This document shows, piece after piece, positions 27,799 through 39,281 of a stretch of 64,000 nt of DNA. The stretch's first letter is position 1; the number at the start of each line of letters is the position of its first letter. The stretch covers positions 1,504,001-1,568,000 of the forward strand of contig CAXXHO010000003.1 of the NCBI GenBank assembly GCA_963667725.2. The letters are read 5' to 3'. A program made the translations under genes and the position numbers. The stretch is from Treponemataceae bacterium (GTDB lineage: Bacteria; Spirochaetota; Spirochaetia; Treponematales; Rectinemataceae). The notes under the pieces were generated by a model. That model had not been told where the DNA came from. It worked only from the letters and a program-made list of their open reading frames with translations, and made no database searches.

Positions 27799-27814
27799 TG
27801 GCACGAATTCTGCT
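27799..27814 (+). promoter_or_regulatory. sigma54 (-24/-12) promoter
   Basis: TGGCACGAATTCTGCT versus consensus TGGCAC-N5-TTGCW (one mismatch, GG/GC spacing exact). Preceded by an extremely AT-rich tract. Confidence 0.75.
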
Positions 27815-30976: not shown

Positions 30977-32878
30977 TCACTTGAGATTGAAGATTATTTT
31001 CGCGCCCTCGCCCACCGCCGATCCGGGAGCGGGCTGCTGCGACTGTACATAGCCATCGCCGTTGATGACGATCCTGAGGTCCTTCCTTTCAAGGAGCGGC
31101 AGGAGGGAACGTTTGGGAAAACCCGTAAAGTCGGGCATGGTCGATCCGATGGCCGCCAAAGTCTCCACGGGCAGCACCACGGATCCTCCGTGGACGACCG
31201 TGGGCGATTTGCCGCGCTCTATGTCGATGCAGGACAGGACAGCCTCGGCGGCGTCCCTGAGAACCGGCGCCGCGATCTGCCCGCCCAGGTAGGAAGCCCC
31301 CCGCGGCTTTATTATGGCGATATAGAGAACGACGCGGGGATTGTCCGCCGGGAAAATGCCCATCGTGCTCGCTATGTAATCCTTTTCGGAATATGCCCTC
31401 GTCTTGGGATCTATCATCTGGGCTGTGCCGGTCTTGACCGCCATCCTGATATCGGAGACTTTGGCGCGCCAGCCCGTGCCCTGCATGCTCGCCGTCGTCT
31501 CCATGGCGTCGAGGATTGCCTTGGATGTTTCCTCCGAAACGACGCGGCGGACAATCTGCGCCTCGTGGGTGAACACCTCTTCCCCATCGGCCGTCTCGAT
31601 GCGCGAAACCGTCGTCGGCTTGAGAAGAAATCCGCCGTTCGCGATGGCCGCGCCGGCCGTGACCATCTGCAGCGCCGTCACCATCACTTCCTGCCCGATC
31701 GCTATGGTGGGTTTGGAACGGCCCGACCATTTCTCCGGTTCGCGCAGGGAACCAGCGCTTTCGCCTGAAAGGCCTATCCCCGTCTTCATGCCAAAGCCGA
31801 AGGTCTTCAGCCGCTCGTAAAGATCGTTTTCAGAGACACGGTCCGATGCGTAACCAACGCCCGCGTTGCTGGAATGAGCCAGAACGCCTGCATAATTCTG
31901 TTTGCCGTAGACGCCCAGGTCCTTGATCACGATTTTCTCGCCGCTTGGGAGCGTCCTGCGGTAGGCTCCATCGCAATCGAAAATAGTCTTGGTCGTGATA
32001 GCGCCCATGTCGAGTATGGAAGCCATGCTGAAGAGCTTGAAAACCGAACCGGGTTCATAGGAATAAAGAGAGAGAAGATCCCTTCTTTTCTCGACATCGT
32101 AGGAAGCGTACTTATTGAGATCGAAGCCCTGCCCTCCGACATAGGCGAGAATCTCGCCCGTTCGCACATCCATGGCGAGAGCCAATGCGGATGAGGCGCC
32201 ATTGGCCTTGACCGCGCCCTCCATGATCTCCTCGATCATGTATTGAAGATTCGCGTCTATGCTCAGCGTCACCGTATCGCCGCGCGGAACCTTGCGGCCG
32301 GGATCCAGATCGCGCCCCGTTCCGTCAGTGGCCTTTCTGGGTTTGGGCTTCAGTTCGCTTTCATATTTGGTCTCTATGCCATCGAGGCCGATATTCCCTT
32401 CCCCCGTGAACCCGATCAGGTGCGAGGCCAGCTTGCCTTCCGGATAAAGACGTCCTGATACCTCGTCGGCCTGGACGCCCTTAAATTTGCCCGTTTTCTT
32501 GGCTTCGATGATCGGGCGAGCCGTTTCCGAGGAAACGCGCCTGGCGATATAGAAATAATTCTGGCTCCCGTCGTCGTAGCGGGAGGCGATGCTCTCCGCC
32601 GGAACGCCCAGAATCTTCGCGAGTTCGGGAATTTCCCGCTTGAACGATTCAGGTTTCGTGGACGGGCGCCAAATCGAAATATTGTACTTGGGCACATCCA
32701 TGGCCAGGACTCGGCCGTTCCTGTCCTGGATCGTGCCCCGCTCACCCGAGTCATCCAAACCTGCCTCCCCGCTTTTTTCGGCGGTGAGGGCAAGCTGGGC
32801 ATATCTGGCCATAACCAGCGAGGCAAATATCCCGAGAACAGCCATGGCCGTAACCAGGCGTATCTTTCTTGTTTTCAT
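30977..32878 (-). CDS. ftsI: Class B penicillin-binding protein (FtsI-like) with a C-terminal PASTA-like domain
   Basis: RGTIQDRNG, RLYPEG, YEPGSVFK (SxxK), HSSNAG (SxN), KTGTAQ. Confidence 0.88.
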   Translation of the reverse strand: MKTRKIRLVTAMAVLGIFASLVMARYAQLALTAEKSGEAGLDDSGERGTIQDRNGRVLAMDVPKYNISIWRPSTKPESFKREIPELAKILGVPAESIASRYDDGSQNYFYIARRVSSETARPIIEAKKTGKFKGVQADEVSGRLYPEGKLASHLIGFTGEGNIGLDGIETKYESELKPKPRKATDGTGRDLDPGRKVPRGDTVTLSIDANLQYMIEEIMEGAVKANGASSALALAMDVRTGEILAYVGGQGFDLNKYASYDVEKRRDLLSLYSYEPGSVFKLFSMASILDMGAITTKTIFDCDGAYRRTLPSGEKIVIKDLGVYGKQNYAGVLAHSSNAGVGYASDRVSENDLYERLKTFGFGMKTGIGLSGESAGSLREPEKWSGRSKPTIAIGQEVMVTALQMVTAGAAIANGGFLLKPTTVSRIETADGEEVFTHEAQIVRRVVSEETSKAILDAMETTASMQGTGWRAKVSDIRMAVKTGTAQMIDPKTRAYSEKDYIASTMGIFPADNPRVVLYIAIIKPRGASYLGGQIAAPVLRDAAEAVLSCIDIERGKSPTVVHGGSVVLPVETLAAIGSTMPDFTGFPKRSLLPLLERKDLRIVINGDGYVQSQQPAPGSAVGEGAKIIFNLK

Positions 32879-32902
32879 CGTTTATCCATGGAAACCAAAA
32901 AC

Positions 32903-33352
32903 CTAGAAGCGGGGGAATGGAAACGCTTTCCCCAGTATATTGTTCATCGGCACCAGGCCGAATTCCCTTGAGTCGATGGACTCGTATTTGTTGTCGCCCA
33001 GGAGGAAGTACGCGGCGCGACTCCCAGGCTTCCCGGAATTTTCCATGCCCTCCTCGATCCAGACCCTCTTGATGATCAGGTTCCGGGTATCGGGATTGAA
33101 TGCGGCGACGATGTCGCGATTCTCAGGCTCTCCCCAAAGGAATAAATAGCCGCCCAAAGGATTCCTGAGCCCATACGCCGCCTTGAGAATAATGACAATA
33201 TCATTCGATCCAAAACTGGGGAGCATGGACCTCCCCTGGACCAGGGCTGCGTCTATGATAAAAGTCCTTCCCAAGATCAACGCCGCCACGACGCAGGCCA
33301 GAATCCTGCCCACGCTTACGGAGCCGGGCTTTGGTCCGTTGAATCTTTTCAA
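32903..33352 (-). CDS. lepB: Signal peptidase I (S26), short form
   Basis: GRSMLPS, IIKRV, LGDNKYESIDSREFG. Probable TTG start after GGAGG. Confidence 0.8.
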   Translation of the reverse strand: MKRFNGPKPGSVSVGRILACVVAALILGRTFIIDAALVQGRSMLPSFGSNDIVIILKAAYGLRNPLGGYLFLWGEPENRDIVAAFNPDTRNLIIKRVWIEEGMENSGKPGSRAAYFLLGDNKYESIDSREFGLVPMNNILGKAFPFPRF

Positions 33353-33446
33353 TCCTTTGCCTCCGGACACCGCTTCCCAAAACAGCATGATGAAGAAAAA
33401 TCTTCGATAATATATCGGCGAAACTCTTCCGATACTCAAAAAACCT

Positions 33447-34850
33447 ATGGATACTGAAACTAACCGGATAAAAAGCAGAAGAGACAGTGTTTCTTCATCG
33501 CAATATCGCCCTAAACCCTTCCTTACCATTCTCGACGGCAAGCCCACCACGGCAGGCAGGGAGCGCCGCTCCGGTCATCATCCTTCCAAATCCATATTCC
33601 AGAAAAGCGGTATAAGATTCCAGTCCTATGCGAATGAGGGGCTGAAAAATGTCACCGCCAAGGGGAAAGTCGGTTTTAAAGCGACAGCCAGGACCCTGAT
33701 CGACCTTCCTAAGTCCATATTCTCGCCCAAGGCAATAAAAGAGCCAGCCTCCGCCGATGAGTGGACGGAAGCTCAGGCCGAGGCCGGCGGACAGATAGCC
33801 GGTGGGCAGAAAACCGGTGAACCGAAAGCCGGCCGGATGGAAGTCATCGCCCTTCTTCACAACATTCAGGCATTCACGGCGCAACTGGGAAAGTTCCGTC
33901 CGGATACCAGCCATGCGCGCAAGATAGTCCTCGCTGTTCTCATCGCCGCGATCGTCATCTCGGCCGGAGCCGCCGCGATCATCGGCGCCACGAGATTCCC
34001 CGTTTCGCCGGGGAATCTCATTCTTCCCGACGAGGAATCGGCGCAGGCTGCCTTGATGGCCTATCTCGAACCGGATTCAGCAGACCAGGAAGCCCTCCAA
34101 TCGGGAGCCCTTCCCCCCATCCCCGTCTCCGTGAACATAAAATCCTACACGGTCAGAAGCGGCGATACCGTCGAAAGAATCGCGAAAAAGTTCGGCCTCA
34201 GGCAGGATACCGTCATTTCGGCCAACAATCTCCAAAGCGCCAGCTCGATCCGTCCGGGGCTGCAGCTCAGGATACCGAACATGGATGGCGTAAGCCATAA
34301 GGTGCGTAGCGGGGAAAGCCTTCTCTATCTCGCTAAAACTTATTCCATAGACATGACCCGCATCGTGGACGCCAACGACCTGGCAAGCGGCACGATAAAT
34401 ACCGGTCAGAGTCTTTTCATTCCCAACGCGAGGCTATCGTCGGCCACCCTGCGCAATTTCTATGGGGAGCGCTTCATTTGGCCGGCCAGAGGCCGCATCT
34501 CTTCCCCCTTCGGGTACAGGGCCAATCCTTTCACCGGCCTGAGAACCTATCATTCGGCCATCGATATCGTCGTCTCGCTGGGGACGAGGATAAAAGCTAC
34601 CAACGACGGAACCGTCGCCGACACCGGCTACAACTCCGTATTCGGCAACTACGTCATCCTGAAACACGCGAGCGGATATCAGTCGCTTTACGCGCACCTG
34701 AGCCAAATTTCCGTCAAGGAAGGGTCCTCCGTCGCCCAGGGGGCCACTATCGGGTTATCGGGCAACACGGGTCAGAGCACCGGTCCTCACCTGCACTTCA
34801 GCATATTCAAGAACGGCCAGGCTCTCGATCCCACGAAATACGTGAAATGA
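33447..34850 (+). CDS. LysM x2 + M23 metallopeptidase (NlpD/MepM-like), membrane anchored
   Basis: TM helix. LysM domains YTVRSGDT and HKVRSGES. M23 motifs HSAID, YAHL, STGPHLHF. Confidence 0.92.
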   Translation: MDTETNRIKSRRDSVSSSQYRPKPFLTILDGKPTTAGRERRSGHHPSKSIFQKSGIRFQSYANEGLKNVTAKGKVGFKATARTLIDLPKSIFSPKAIKEPASADEWTEAQAEAGGQIAGGQKTGEPKAGRMEVIALLHNIQAFTAQLGKFRPDTSHARKIVLAVLIAAIVISAGAAAIIGATRFPVSPGNLILPDEESAQAALMAYLEPDSADQEALQSGALPPIPVSVNIKSYTVRSGDTVERIAKKFGLRQDTVISANNLQSASSIRPGLQLRIPNMDGVSHKVRSGESLLYLAKTYSIDMTRIVDANDLASGTINTGQSLFIPNARLSSATLRNFYGERFIWPARGRISSPFGYRANPFTGLRTYHSAIDIVVSLGTRIKATNDGTVADTGYNSVFGNYVILKHASGYQSLYAHLSQISVKEGSSVAQGATIGLSGNTGQSTGPHLHFSIFKNGQALDPTKYVK

Positions 34851-34860
34851 TTCCATGGAG

Positions 34861-34905
34861 ACTCTGGAAGCTCTAGAAGCTCCGGAGCCTCCGGAACTTC
34901 CGGAG
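34861..34905. repeat. Five degenerate 9-bp tandem units
   Basis: actctggaa gctctagaa gctccggag cctccggaa cttccggag. Confidence 0.7.
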
Positions 34906-34927
34906 ACCCAAAATATCACCGTCTAAT

Positions 34928-34965
34928 AAAAGATACAGAAGGCCAAAGGGTTCTGTATCTTTTTT
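34928..34965 (+). terminator. Probable intrinsic terminator of the M23 gene
   Basis: aaaagatacagaa / ttctgtatctttt plus a T tract. Confidence 0.65.
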
Positions 34966-35074
34966 AATATCTTTTCATAGTTTTTAGCGCGACAGCATCC
35001 TCAAGAAATCTAAACTTCGAATCTATTTCTTTATGCTGATGAATAATAAAAAATATAAAATTATATATGCTATA

Positions 35075-35090
35075 TGGCACGGCGTTTGCA
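35075..35090 (+). promoter_or_regulatory. sigma54 (-24/-12) promoter of the RpoS-like sigma gene
   Basis: TGGCACGGCGTTTGCA is an exact match to TGGCAC-N5-TTGCA. It has an AT-rich tract upstream and lies 24 nt before the ATG. Confidence 0.88.
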
Positions 35091-35114
35091 TTTAAGGAGC
35101 CAGGAGGAAGTGCC

Positions 35115-35948
35115 ATGCCCAACCTTTCCACAAAAGATGAATGCCTCACAAGTTATTTCAAGTCGATACGAGGGATACGGCTTCTTACGAGGGAAGAAGA
35201 AGAATCCTTGTCCTTGAAAATAGCGCATGGTGACCAAGCCGCCCGCAAACGACTTATCGAAGCTAATCTCAGGCTTGTCGTGCGCATTGCGAGATCGATG
35301 TGGAATCCCTCCCTCACCCTCATCGACCTTATCCAGGAAGGCAATATCGGCCTCATGAAGGCCGCCGAGAAATTCGACGGCGCCCGGAAGGTCAAATTCT
35401 CGACCTACGCCGCGTGGTGGATCCGTCAGTCGATAAGCCGCTCCCTCGTCAATACGGGAAGGACGATTCGGCTGCCCCACCGCAAGGAAGAACTAATAAG
35501 GAAAGTTCAGGCCGAGAAGAGCATCATGAGCCAGACGCTGAACAGACAGCCCACCTCCAGGGAAATTTCCGACAAGCTGGGCATCCCCGAAAAAAAGCTG
35601 AACGACGTGCTCATGTTTGCGGAAAAGGTCGGCAGCTTCGAGTCCCAAGTGGACGAAGACACGGTTGACCTGCTCGATATGCACGAGGACTTCACCTATT
35701 CGCCCGAAAGGCTTTTTGGCGAGCACATCGCGCGCGAGCAGACGGTTCATCTTCTTTCCGTCCTCCAGGAGAGGGAAAGGAACGTCATCAGCCAACGCTT
35801 CGAGATAGGCGGGCGCAGCCGACGATCGCTCAAGCAGATGGGCCTCGAGATGAAGCTTTCGCCGGAAACGGTGCGCCATATCGAGAAAAGGGCGCTCAAG
35901 AAGCTGCAGACCGAGGCGGCCAAAGGCTATCTCTGCATGACTGCCTAG
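35115..35948 (+). CDS. RpoS/RpoD-family alternative sigma70 factor lacking region 1.1
   Basis: AGGAGG RBS. Region 1.2 (YFKSI...LLTREEE), ANLRLVV, DLIQEGNIGLMKAAEKFD, KFSTYAAWWIRQSI, RTIRLP, region 4 ETVRHIEKRALKKL. Confidence 0.92.
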   Translation: MPNLSTKDECLTSYFKSIRGIRLLTREEEESLSLKIAHGDQAARKRLIEANLRLVVRIARSMWNPSLTLIDLIQEGNIGLMKAAEKFDGARKVKFSTYAAWWIRQSISRSLVNTGRTIRLPHRKEELIRKVQAEKSIMSQTLNRQPTSREISDKLGIPEKKLNDVLMFAEKVGSFESQVDEDTVDLLDMHEDFTYSPERLFGEHIAREQTVHLLSVLQERERNVISQRFEIGGRSRRSLKQMGLEMKLSPETVRHIEKRALKKLQTEAAKGYLCMTA

Positions 35949-35970
35949 GACAGGGCAGAAATTAGGGCTC

Positions 35971-36002
35971 TGGGCGGGGTCGCCTGCCGGCGGCCCCGCC
36001 CA
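35971..36002 (+). terminator. GC-rich stem-loop after the sigma gene
   Basis: tgggcggggtcgcc / ggcggccccgccca, with a weak U tract. Confidence 0.55.
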
Positions 36003-36041: not shown

Positions 36042-37169
36042 GTGGCTTCGAAAAAACACGGCGGACGCAGGACAAAGGCTTCAGGAAGCCGAGGGCACGG
36101 CGCATCTTTCCTTATCGCGGCACTTGCAATCCTGGCGCTCGCGGTTTGCGTAGCTTTTGTTTCCTACCTGAACAGACCTTCGGAAACGAGGACGACCACA
36201 ACCACCGCACCCTTCTCGCCGACGACGCTTTGGCCCTACGGACAGCCCGAGTACTCCATAGAAGTGCCCGAGGGCTATGAGGCCCTCCTGCCGGACAGCC
36301 AAGCCCCGCCGGTACCCGAAGCTGATGTCGCGACTGTACCCGCGCAGAAGCCCCACATAGAGCCAGCAAAAAAAGCCGTGGCAAGCGATAATCGCCCCAC
36401 CTTGCCGCCGAAGGAAAAGGCGAAGCCGTACATTCTCACGGTGCGGGAAGAAAGGCTGAAAGAAGGTCGCAAGCCTACCCTCATCATCGTCATCGATGAC
36501 GCGGGGTACAACTTGAGACAGCTGCAGCCCTTTTTGGCCCTGCCCTTCCCCATTTCGATAGCGGTGCTGCCGCAGGTGGACCACAGCGCCGAAGCAGCGA
36601 GACTCGCCGCGGAAGCAGGAAAGGAAGTCCTCCTGCATCAGCCCATGCAGGCGCTGGGCGGCAACAATCCCGGGCCGGGAGCCATTCTCCTCGGCATGAA
36701 GCCCGAGGAAGCCGCTTCCCTCGTGGCCCGAAACCTGGAGCGCCTTCCCCAGGCTGTCGGCGTGAATAATCATATGGGTTCTGCGGTCACAAGGGACGAA
36801 GCGCTCATGGCGGCCACCCTCGACCTTGTCAAAAAGCGTGGCATCTATTATCTTGATTCTCTCACGGCACCGGGAACTGCGACGGCAGCCCTCTGCCTTG
36901 AACTAGCCATACCATATTGGGAGCGTGACGTGTTTCTGGACAACTCTGGCGATAAGCAATCGGTACTCCACGCTCTCGATGAGGGCAAGAAGGTCGCCTC
37001 GACCAGGGGCGCCGCTGTGCTGATCGGCCATGTCTGGTCGGCCGAACTCGCGCAGACGCTCATGGATATATACCCTCAGCTCGTCGAAGAAGGTTATTCT
37101 TTATCGACCATATCCAAGTACATGATCAGGAGCGCGACGGGAGACGACGATGCTCGTCCTGGGGATTGA
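36042..37169 (+). CDS. Divergent polysaccharide deacetylase family (YibQ-like)
   Basis: TM plus Pro/Thr linker. IIVIDDAG, LLHQPM, NNHMGS, YLDSLT, RDVFLDN, LIGH. Confidence 0.9.
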   Translation: MASKKHGGRRTKASGSRGHGASFLIAALAILALAVCVAFVSYLNRPSETRTTTTTAPFSPTTLWPYGQPEYSIEVPEGYEALLPDSQAPPVPEADVATVPAQKPHIEPAKKAVASDNRPTLPPKEKAKPYILTVREERLKEGRKPTLIIVIDDAGYNLRQLQPFLALPFPISIAVLPQVDHSAEAARLAAEAGKEVLLHQPMQALGGNNPGPGAILLGMKPEEAASLVARNLERLPQAVGVNNHMGSAVTRDEALMAATLDLVKKRGIYYLDSLTAPGTATAALCLELAIPYWERDVFLDNSGDKQSVLHALDEGKKVASTRGAAVLIGHVWSAELAQTLMDIYPQLVEEGYSLSTISKYMIRSATGDDDARPGD

Positions 37170-38178
37170 GTCCTCCTGCGACGAATGCTCGGCGGCCATT
37201 GTCGAAGACGGCAGGAAAATTCATTCGAACATAGTCGCGACGCAGATTCCCCTCCATGCGCAATACCAGGGGGTCGTTCCGGAAATCGCCAGCAGGGCTC
37301 ATACGCAGTGGATAGAAGGTGTCGTAAGGCAGGCTCTTCGCGAAGCGTCCATCGCGCCATCGGGAATCGACGGCGTGGCCGCCACCTTCCAGCCCGGGCT
37401 TATAGGCTCTCTTGCCGTGGGCCTTTCTTTCGCCAAAGCCATGTCATTCGCCCTCGGAAAGCCTTTCAAGGGCATCAATCACATGCTAGCCCACCTCTAT
37501 GCCCCTCGCCTTGTCGACGACATCGAATATCCCTTCATCGGGCTTCTGGTATCGGGCGGTCATTCGATCATCTGCCTGGCCGAGGATTTCGACAGGTTCA
37601 GCGTCCTGGGGACAACGATAGACGACGCCGCGGGCGAGGCTTTTGATAAAGTCTCCAAGCACTACGGTTTCGGCTATCCAGGCGGCCAGATCATAGACGA
37701 ACTCGCCGAGAAGGGAGATGCCGAAGCCTTCAAGTTCCCGACGCCCTCCCTCCACAAGGGCGACCATCGCTACGACCTTTCCTATTCCGGATTGAAAACC
37801 GCCGTCATCCACCATCTCGACAGCTACCGGCGGAACGGCGCCGAGACTACTCCCGAGAATATCGCCGCTTCGTTCAGGAAAACCGCCATCGACATGCTGC
37901 TGTCCAAGCTCCTCCTCGCGGCTGAGGATACGGGGATTCGACGCATCGTCGCGGGGGGCGGAGTCGCCGCCAACGCCTACCTGCGCCGCCAGCTCGATGC
38001 CCGGAAGGACCTCGAGATACATTTCCCGCCCCTTGCCCTCTGTGGCGACAACGGCGCCATGGTGGCGGGCATCGCCTATCACTATTTCGCGCGCGGGGAA
38101 AAGGATGGCCTGGATCTTGCGCCGCAATCGCGCGTACCTATTTACAAACGCGGGGCGAACGGAGGCAAAACGTCATGA
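37150..38178 (+). CDS. tsaD: tRNA N6-threonylcarbamoyltransferase
   Basis: LGIESSCDE, GVVPEIASRAH, NHMLAH, VSGGHS, DDAAGEAFDK, SYSGLKT, DNGAMVA. Confidence 0.97.
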   Translation: MLVLGIESSCDECSAAIVEDGRKIHSNIVATQIPLHAQYQGVVPEIASRAHTQWIEGVVRQALREASIAPSGIDGVAATFQPGLIGSLAVGLSFAKAMSFALGKPFKGINHMLAHLYAPRLVDDIEYPFIGLLVSGGHSIICLAEDFDRFSVLGTTIDDAAGEAFDKVSKHYGFGYPGGQIIDELAEKGDAEAFKFPTPSLHKGDHRYDLSYSGLKTAVIHHLDSYRRNGAETTPENIAASFRKTAIDMLLSKLLLAAEDTGIRRIVAGGGVAANAYLRRQLDARKDLEIHFPPLALCGDNGAMVAGIAYHYFARGEKDGLDLAPQSRVPIYKRGANGGKTS

Positions 38179-39281
38179 TCGCGCTTGAAAAGGCGGCCCA
38201 GACCGCCATAGAACAGTGTCTGGCCATGAAGGCTGGCGAAAAGCTCCTCATCGTGTCCAATCCCGGCACCGAACAGGCCATGATCGCCGAAGCCCTGAAG
38301 GCCGCCGCGGGAAAAGCTGGCGTTCTGACGACGCTTCTCTACCAGCCTATCAAGACCCAAGGCGACTATGCCGAGGATTTCATCCTCGAGGCGATAGCGT
38401 CCAAACCCGATGTCCTCGCCTCCATTTCCACGGAGAAGCTCGGCAAGGACAAATACCGCATCGCGGCGCCCCTGACCGCTCCCGACGGAAAGAAATACGA
38501 CCATATTTTCCATTATCTGCTCCATGGGACCAAGGAAATGCGCGCCTTCTGGTCGCCGGGCATGACGGTGGACATGTTCACGCGCACCGTGGCCATCGAT
38601 TATTCCCAGATGCGCTCGAGGGCGCTCGCCCTCAAGAAGGTTCTCGACGAGGCGGTCGCGCTCCAGATATCGGCGCCGTCCGGCACCGATATTTTCATCG
38701 GCATCGAGGGCAGGAAGACTTTCATCGACGATGGCGATTTCGGGGAGCCCGGCGCGGGCGGCAACCTTCCTGCCGGGGAAGTCTTCATTTCGCCCGTCGT
38801 CCAATCCGCGGAAGGAACCATCGTGTTCGATGGCTCCATCGCCGATATCGCGGGCGACATCATCATTGAGACACCCATATCCTGCGCCGTATCGGGCGGC
38901 TACGTGATAAGCTGCGAGGGCGCCTTAGAGGCCGAACGTCTGGAAAAAGCCCTGCGCACCGGCATGGACATGGCTTCATCCCTCGTGAAAAAAGGAGGGA
39001 TGAGCCCCGAGGAAGCCCTTCGCTACGCCACGAATGCGAGGCATATAGGGGAATTGGGCATAGGACTCAATGTCGAAGCCACGATAACCGGGAACATGCT
39101 GGAAGACGAGAAGGTCTACGGCACCTGTCATTTCGCCATAGGCTCCAACTATGACGAGGACGCCCCCGCCATGATCCATCTCGATGGTCTCGTGAAACGG
39201 CCGACGATTACCGCGCTCCTGCCGGGCGGAAGAGAAATTACCCTCATGAGGAATGGCGACCTATTTTCATGCGGTGAATGA
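38175..39281 (+). CDS. M29-family (thermophilic metalloprotease-like) aminopeptidase
   Basis: GNLPAGEVF, IGELGIGLN, LEDEKVYGTCHFAIG, IHLD. Confidence 0.85.
   Translation: MIALEKAAQTAIEQCLAMKAGEKLLIVSNPGTEQAMIAEALKAAAGKAGVLTTLLYQPIKTQGDYAEDFILEAIASKPDVLASISTEKLGKDKYRIAAPLTAPDGKKYDHIFHYLLHGTKEMRAFWSPGMTVDMFTRTVAIDYSQMRSRALALKKVLDEAVALQISAPSGTDIFIGIEGRKTFIDDGDFGEPGAGGNLPAGEVFISPVVQSAEGTIVFDGSIADIAGDIIIETPISCAVSGGYVISCEGALEAERLEKALRTGMDMASSLVKKGGMSPEEALRYATNARHIGELGIGLNVEATITGNMLEDEKVYGTCHFAIGSNYDEDAPAMIHLDGLVKRPTITALLPGGREITLMRNGDLFSCGE

Follow-up and report, generated by a model that had tools for sequence, protein, structure and literature searches.

In promoters recognized by sigma-54, 10 nt separate a GG from a GC doublet within a consensus of the type YTGGCACG-N4-TTGCW, and in the classical enhancer-dependent systems, such as NtrC-glnAp2, a -24/-12 promoter of this kind is combined with paired sites 100-150 nt upstream and with a receiver-AAA+-HTH activator and its kinase. 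In the Rrp2-RpoN-RpoS cascade of Borrelia burgdorferi, the gene behind the sigma-54 promoter is itself that of a sigma factor, RpoS. The passage of Francke et al. on this type of regulation cites sigma-54 control of sigma-S for Borrelia only (PMC3162934). Caimano et al. assign Borrelia RpoS a loose place among diverse bacteria, in a paper that nowhere mentions Treponema by name (PMC6719511), and Rrp2 of T. denticola is called unstudied where a further source refers to it (PMC12070737). In the full-text literature, which does not cover subscription journals, we found no description of a sigma-54 promoter preceding an RpoS-like gene outside Borrelia. Here, we describe such a locus in a 64-kb stretch of the genome of a Treponemataceae bacterium (assembly GCA_963667725.2, contig CAXXHO010000003.1; G000:C3:1504001-1568000 in our numbering, in which G-numbers denote genomes and L-numbers loci), referred to below as the window. 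The gene in question, P0001, encodes a 277-aa sigma-70-family protein, and the explanation that best accounts for the locus as a whole, to which we assign a probability of roughly 0.8, is that P0001 is the orthologue of Borrelia RpoS and is transcribed by RpoN polymerase from a promoter at 35075-35090.

The predicted promoter (TGGCACGGCGTTTGCA) is intergenic, faces the gene, and is separated from the ATG by 24 nt that include a Shine-Dalgarno (SD) sequence; the exact match and its distance from the ATG had already been noted in an initial annotation made from the sequence alone. It is the sole match with 0 mismatches to TGGCAC-N5-TTGCW on either strand of the window; with at most 1 mismatch allowed, the window contains 4 matches against 1.14 expected, a number reached in 4 of 100 shuffles. 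The whole genome (4.22 Mb) contains 9 matches to the strict pattern and 45 to a relaxed -24/-12 pattern, several of the latter lying 24-62 nt 5' of long open reading frames (ORFs) with a ribosome-binding site, often next to a gene for an activator. The filter used to retain intergenic sites genome-wide was too crude for counting true promoters or regulon members, and it misfiled the promoter at 35075-35090 itself as coding because an open frame extends upstream of the ATG. A consensus scan of the plus strand from the peptidase stop to the ATG (34850-35115) found no sigma-70-like promoter. Given the usual distance of 12 nt from the GC doublet, transcription is predicted to start near 35101; the leader so defined folds no better than shuffled sequences (z +1.2). 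The GG/GC spacing and the gene-facing intergenic site occur in a genome that encodes RpoN and AAA+ activators, at a motif that is conserved in orthologues; these are among the features expected of a sigma-54-dependent promoter. A possible regulatory pairing between the complementary sequences ATGGCAC (35074-80) and GTGCCAT (35110-16) was considered and dropped, both for the poor folding of the leader and because relatives retain 'CCATG' only.

Two further sites of this type were observed. The identical 16-mer TGGCACGGCGTTTGCA recurs outside the window at C8:6011-6026, on an 18-kb contig, 83 nt 5' of a 485-aa ORF and between flanks unrelated to those of the window locus. Within the window, the sigma-54-like sequence TGGCACGAATTCTGCT, with one mismatch and apparently intergenic, lies at 27799-27814, 109 nt 5' of a 174-aa ORF with a signal-peptide-like start.

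Conservation of the promoter was assessed at two levels. Among 41 genomes of the order (G000 included), a close orthologue was present in 33, the best 30 loci of which were examined, and none of that closeness was found in G016, G020, G026, G027, G030, G034, G036, and G038. At the phylum level, 151 Spirochaetota genomes were searched and 40 best-hit regions were picked from the top of the list; removal of two duplicates (L151 and L162) and of a member of another clade (L152) left 37 loci. The pattern TGG[CT]A-N6-NTGC-N, sought within 250 nt of the start codon, was found in 30/30 order-level loci (29/29 relatives besides the locus itself; 26/30 under a stricter pattern) and in 33 of the 37 phylum-level loci, so that the GG-N10-GC signature expected 5' of orthologues is present at 62 of 66 other loci. 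The one Borrelia locus has it as well (1/1), and it is absent 5' of 14 RpoD, 4 group 'Y', and 6 FliA-like genes (0/24). Across 327,338 strand-bases of clade-A loci (the orthologues, as defined below), 62 of the 70 pattern matches are the expected site and 8 are other matches. Even positions that the pattern leaves free obey the consensus, with T before TGG in 41/63, C or T at position 6 in 63/63, and A or T after TTGC in 62/63. From the beginning of the motif to the start codon, the distance is 35-45 nt in 42/62 loci, approximately, since start codons were chosen by rule, which suggests that very short leaders are the norm; the corresponding distance to the GTG chosen in the Borrelia-like genome is 74 nt. 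Because nearly every related spirochaete examined keeps the promoter, the RpoN-RpoS wiring is likely old and phylum-wide and not specific to Borrelia. In family f17, 15 of 16 genomes yielded a single match to the query, which in G098, the one checked, is a 590-aa RpoD-type frame; this agrees with the absence of RpoS from Leptospira interrogans as stated in a passage of a review (PMC12655853).

Orthology was examined with short sigma factors, RpoD, and FliA-like proteins from the genomes searched, using a quick tree of 81 of the 112 extracted proteins and a careful tree of 68 rows. Apart from FliA, the proteins form four groups, namely RpoD, the small group 'Y', clade A, and clade B. Clade A unites P0001 and its phylum-wide orthologues with three Borrelia/Borreliella RpoS proteins, with support of 100/99 in the careful tree; one of these, the protein of L163, was named as Borrelia by exact look-up and shares a 90% cluster with B. 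burgdorferi RpoS. Grouping Borrelia RpoS with clade B was rejected in an approximately unbiased (AU) test (p 0.00064, a value weakened by the fact that clade B had been delimited beforehand from the first tree). Synteny supports the orthology independently: a homologue of the PF04748 gene lies 3' of the sigma gene in 28/30 order-level loci, and a PF04748 gene is also directly 3' of Borrelia rpoS (L163:534-1445). On the upstream side, the two systems differ, with rod-binding/FlgI genes in Borrelia and, here, a LysM-M23 peptidase gene, a homologue of which precedes the sigma gene in 28/30 order-level loci (all except L036 and L037). A profile scan of genome contigs with the orthologue alignment returned mostly RpoD genes of Firmicutes and others, since the alignment captures patterns common to all RpoD-type proteins, and was not used for counts; its relevant output was confined to the two highest-ranking loci, one from a Spirochaetia bacterium and the other from a metagenome-assembled genome of Alkalispirochaeta (44-45% identity).

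The designation 'RpoS-like', used in the initial annotation, is valid only as orthology to Borrelia RpoS. Like proteobacterial RpoS (sigma-38), P0001 has a group-2 architecture, with Pfam Sigma70 regions 1.2, 2, 3, and 4 (r1_2, r2, r3, and r4) and with region 1.1 not detected by Pfam, as had been noted before, and the proteobacterial RpoS model TIGR02394 is its best NCBIfam match. However, the score of 220.4 bits is far below the curated cut-off of 378.7, and NF004207 gives 211.5 against 394 bits, so that P0001 is not a proteobacterial RpoS equivalog. It was likewise rejected as a housekeeping RpoD, being 277 aa long (ATG at 35115, stop codon at 35946-35948), devoid of region 1.1, and below the cut-off of every RpoD model; RpoD itself, of 577 aa, is the product of another gene (C3:1152288-1152968).

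Upstream of the promoter, the A+T-rich tract pointed out previously is readily recognized (Table 1), and a role for it in DNA bending or looping may be inferred. Beyond this spacer lies a perfect inverted repeat (AAAAGATACAGAA/TTCTGTATCTTTT) with the anatomy of a two-way terminator, in which the 13-bp stem (-16.2 kcal/mol, z -4.9) is preceded by an A run and followed by a T run (TTTTTT). The arms contain the half-sites GATACAG (34932-34938) and CTGTATC (34953-34959), about 150 nt 5' of the predicted start, and the palindrome occurs only twice in the genome. In 7 of the 9 closest loci (L013-L018 and L020 among L013-L021), the arm sequence is fixed and the centre is variable. In the genus of the present bacterium, the inverted arms are at -143 and -121 relative to the motif, and order-wide, two ATACA-type sites are found near -134 and -100. 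For clade A as a whole, 91 of 128 [CGT]ATAC[AG] words, counted on both strands, fall between -160 and -81, and TCATACA occurs 5' of the promoter in 22/64 loci, versus 2.1 expected from base composition and 6/64 in a coding control. No ATACA-type word was found in the upstream region of Borrelia rpoS, which in this respect differs from the present locus with its candidate enhancer. The element at 34928-34963 is thus likely, as judged from sequence conservation, to be both a terminator and a candidate enhancer for activator binding. The initial annotation had described hairpins on both sides as apparently insulating the gene; both are real folds, but the upstream one is probably more than an insulator. 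In the downstream hairpin, a G+C stem 14 bp long forms part of a structure with a folding energy of -41.7 kcal/mol (z -4.3); the stem is retained in the genus-level relatives L014 and L015, and a strong hairpin is present in some, although not all, others. Between the peptidase stop and the upstream hairpin, a series of short repeats and palindromes that overlap one another (CTCCGGAGCCTCCGGAACTTCCGGAG and the like) was observed at 34857-34905.

The genome encodes a single, complete RpoN, a 459-aa ORF on C3 with the AID, CBD, and DBD domains, and nine strong matches to PF00158 (Sigma54_activat), so that both the polymerase subunit and the NtrC/Rrp2-type activators needed for the proposed wiring were found when sought. 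Only one activator and one sigma gene behind a sigma-54 promoter are present in the Borrelia-like genome, compared with nine activators and two such sigma genes here. Three of the activators, L004, L005, and L008, were examined with Pfam and have the receiver-AAA+-HTH_8 architecture. One of these, L004 (C3:822899-824236), is the Rrp2 orthologue, with a reciprocal best match to Borrelia Rrp2 (L208) at 53% identity; reciprocal best hits of L208 also exist in S. thermophila, T. denticola, T. primitia, and T. pallidum. Another, L008 (C3:1041091-1042491), is the reciprocal best hit, at 55-57% identity, of L222, a receiver-AAA+-HTH activator of T. primitia ZAS-2 (G039) whose gene immediately precedes the clade-A sigma gene in the same orientation (L036; C1:114552-116986), with two ATACA-type sites and a sigma-54 promoter in the gap between the two genes. 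A histidine kinase gene is immediately 5' of L004 and of L008 alike. A genome scan found no sigma-54 promoter beside L004, so the target of L004 lies elsewhere. Proteins resembling L008 are found in 36/41 genomes and in 0/4 of family f3, which lacks a typical clade-A gene. This co-occurrence of L008 and clade A is suggestive but not clean, with discordant genomes and with paralogues of about 50% identity blurring orthology. The L008 family is a candidate activator at least as good as the Rrp2 orthologue. Convergent to the kinase/Rrp2-orthologue operon lies a further sigma-70-family gene (L004:169-981, on C3), probably of the FliA type, whose 270-aa product has regions 2, 3, and 4.

In the mechanism we propose, RpoN holoenzyme would wait as a closed complex on the GG and GC elements until a phosphorylated receiver-AAA+-HTH activator, either L008 or L004, binds the GATACAG/CTGTATC half-sites. 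The activator would loop across the A+T-rich spacer and, using ATP, open the promoter; transcription from about 35101 would then yield a 14-nt leader beginning with the ribosome-binding site, and the new sigma factor would redirect core polymerase to its regulon. The layout, deduced here from sequence alone, is that of NtrC-glnAp2, in that a -24/-12 promoter and paired candidate sites upstream of it flank an A+T-rich spacer and a cognate kinase accompanies the receiver-AAA+-HTH activator; it differs from that system in that the output is a sigma factor instead of a metabolic operon and in that the sites are not those of NtrC.

Table 1. Features of the P0001 locus (positions in the window)
Feature	Position	Strand	Basis or remarks
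LysM + M23 peptidase gene, 467 aa (upstream neighbour)	33447..34850	+	Pfam PF01551, PF01476
Perfect 13-nt inverted repeat AAAAGATACAGAA/TTCTGTATCTTTT	34928..34963		Terminator-like hairpin and candidate enhancer (upstream activating sequence, UAS)
A+T-rich spacer	34964..35074		75.7% A+T; window 57.8% G+C
Predicted sigma-54 -24/-12 promoter TGGCACGGCGTTTGCA	35075-35090	+	GG 35076-77, GC 35088-89; exact consensus
Predicted 14-nt leader	35101..35114	+	SD AGGAGG 35102-35107; start expected near 35101
277-aa sigma-70-family gene (P0001), clade A, orthologue of Borrelia RpoS	35115..35948	+	Domains, NCBIfam, tree, AU test, synteny
G+C-rich hairpin past the stop codon	35971..36002	+	No T run; possible terminator or transcript-stabilizing end
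Divergent polysaccharide deacetylase gene PF04748 (downstream neighbour)	36042..37169	+	Pfam

The other short sigma factors of the tree, clade B, are also well delimited (support 100/99 in the careful tree), and the genome encodes one gene of each clade. Clade B includes T. pallidum TP1012 ('sigma-43'), T. denticola TDE0937 (L164, which contains an exact match to the published TDE0937 forward primer), and the paralogue in the present genome at C5:870411-871256 (minus strand). These proteins resemble P0001 in being short sigma-70-family factors of similar length that mostly have a sigma-54 motif (5' of 10/15 clade-B loci); they differ in forming a separate clade, at 36-38% identity to P0001, and in the type of upstream palindrome, which is GTGTCATTTTGACAC-like. 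The paralogue, outside the window, repeats the layout of the P0001 locus, with TGGCACGGATGTTGCA followed by AAGGAG and the ATG (C5:870411-871327, minus strand), and is preceded by a GTCATTTTGACAC-type palindrome. Expression of TDE0937 is stated, in the parts of the study concerned, to be induced 2.8-fold by heat, 21.8-fold by oxygen, and 14-fold by osmotic downshift, and the gene is proposed there as a stress regulator, RpoS homologues being said to be missing in T. denticola (PMC2965109). A tentative and rather doubtful extension of these observations is that spirochaetes ancestrally possessed two parallel sigma-54-to-sigma cascades, one with clade A, ATACA sites, and an L008/L222-type activator and the other with clade B, GTGTCA-N-TGACAC sites, and Rrp2, and that Borrelia represents a stripped-down rewiring and not the prototype. 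On the same doubtful footing, Borrelia would have lost clade B together with the clade-A enhancer, Rrp2, formerly the clade-B activator, would have taken over rpoS, and the treponemes of syphilis and periodontitis would have retained the clade-B arm behind a sigma-54 promoter.

Of the alternatives to RpoN-dependent transcription of P0001 through an upstream activator site, the most radical is that the motif is a chance match or a relic and that the housekeeping sigma factor transcribes the gene from the A+T-rich tract or by read-through from the peptidase gene. Weak sigma-70 promoters in A+T-rich DNA can indeed escape a consensus scan, but the retention of the motif at a near-fixed distance in the orthologous loci, its rarity elsewhere in the same 327 kb, its absence 5' of other sigma genes, the empty sigma-70 scan, and the terminator-like hairpin standing between the peptidase and sigma genes make this highly improbable. 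A milder alternative, which we regard as unlikely, accepts the promoter and takes the hairpin at 34928-34963 as nothing but the terminator of the peptidase gene, with activation being enhancer-independent or exerted through another site. It accords with the two-way terminator anatomy and with the lack of ATACA-type words at Borrelia rpoS, where, going by the title of a 2009 report by Blevins listed among the references of PMC3037356, Rrp2 activation is said to be enhancer-independent. The fixed arms around a changing centre in the close relatives argue against a pure terminator, and so do the more distant relatives, which repeat similar words at fixed distances without hairpin potential, 10-fold enriched over composition.

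The identity of the activator is a separate matter. Conservation of the full Hk2-Rrp2-RpoN-RpoS chain, with L004 and its adjacent kinase acting on the promoter of P0001, is a real possibility, although we hold it to be somewhat less than evenly likely: the reciprocal best match to L208, the abutting kinase gene, the absence of a local target promoter, and the position of Borrelia RpoS within the clade of P0001 all fit such a chain. Yet an Rrp2 orthologue persists in the T. pallidum-like and T. denticola-like genomes, where the gene behind a sigma-54 promoter is of clade B only, and the distinct palindrome of clade B would fit Rrp2 serving that clade while another activator serves clade A; in T. 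primitia, moreover, it is an activator of a different family that directly precedes the clade-A gene. Several points weigh against the preferred reading, that of an RpoS orthologue driven by RpoN with the help of upstream sites. The motif is missing from 4/37 phylum-level loci under the pattern used, although L132 and L140 are near-matches by eye, and the rule-based start codons and the prior delimitation of clade B soften the distances and the AU test, respectively. The candidate enhancer overlaps a terminator-like hairpin that alone could explain its presence in close relatives; its half-sites form an inverted pair spaced by 22 nt in the genus and a direct pair spaced by 33-34 nt in other families, and are therefore perhaps not the same element. 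An activator gene adjoins the sigma gene in only 1/30 order-level loci (L036 of G039) by tblastn with L222 and L004; none was found beside it in 42 phylum-level loci, for which only about 600 nt upstream were covered, so that this is not evidence of absence. Genome G027 has an L008-like activator and no clade-A sigma gene was found in it, whereas G031 has a clade-A gene and no L008-like match at E<=1e-100. Finally, Borrelia Rrp2 reportedly works without an enhancer, so the activator at the present locus cannot be read from Borrelia.

The gene neighbourhood consists of cell-envelope and housekeeping genes (30977-33550 and 36042-39281), among them those for a penicillin-binding protein (PBP) transpeptidase with a PASTA domain, an S26 signal peptidase, the LysM-M23 peptidase, the PF04748 deacetylase, TsaD, and an M29 peptidase. 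No sequencing run that contains this DNA is registered as RNA. From two runs that carry the label metatranscriptomic cDNA, and that are perhaps of RNA origin, contigs cover 33485-34816, 35139-35966, and 36071-36368; none of these contigs bridges either intergenic region, and as contigs they cannot show a start, nor do the uncovered parts prove anything.

Taken with the likenesses to B. burgdorferi, namely orthologous sigma factors, the PF04748 gene downstream, the sigma-54 promoter directly upstream, and rpoN and an Rrp2 orthologue with an adjacent kinase in the same genome, the evidence from promoter, rpoN, activators, orthologue conservation, and tree supports the proposal, made in the initial annotation, of a Borrelia-like RpoN-RpoS wiring in a spirochaete outside Borrelia, a kind of circuit already known from Borrelia itself. 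The same gene with the same type of predicted promoter is found in free-living and termite-gut-type spirochaetes, and a sister gene with that promoter type in the T. pallidum-like and T. denticola-like genomes searched. For Borrelia, this would provide an evolutionary baseline against which inherited features may be told from rewired ones, such as enhancer loss and a dependence on BosR acquired later. A testable hypothesis also emerges for the way in which TDE0937, the stress-induced sigma factor of T. denticola, may be switched on, and the genes that this hitherto unstudied type of global regulator controls in environmental spirochaetes may become approachable.

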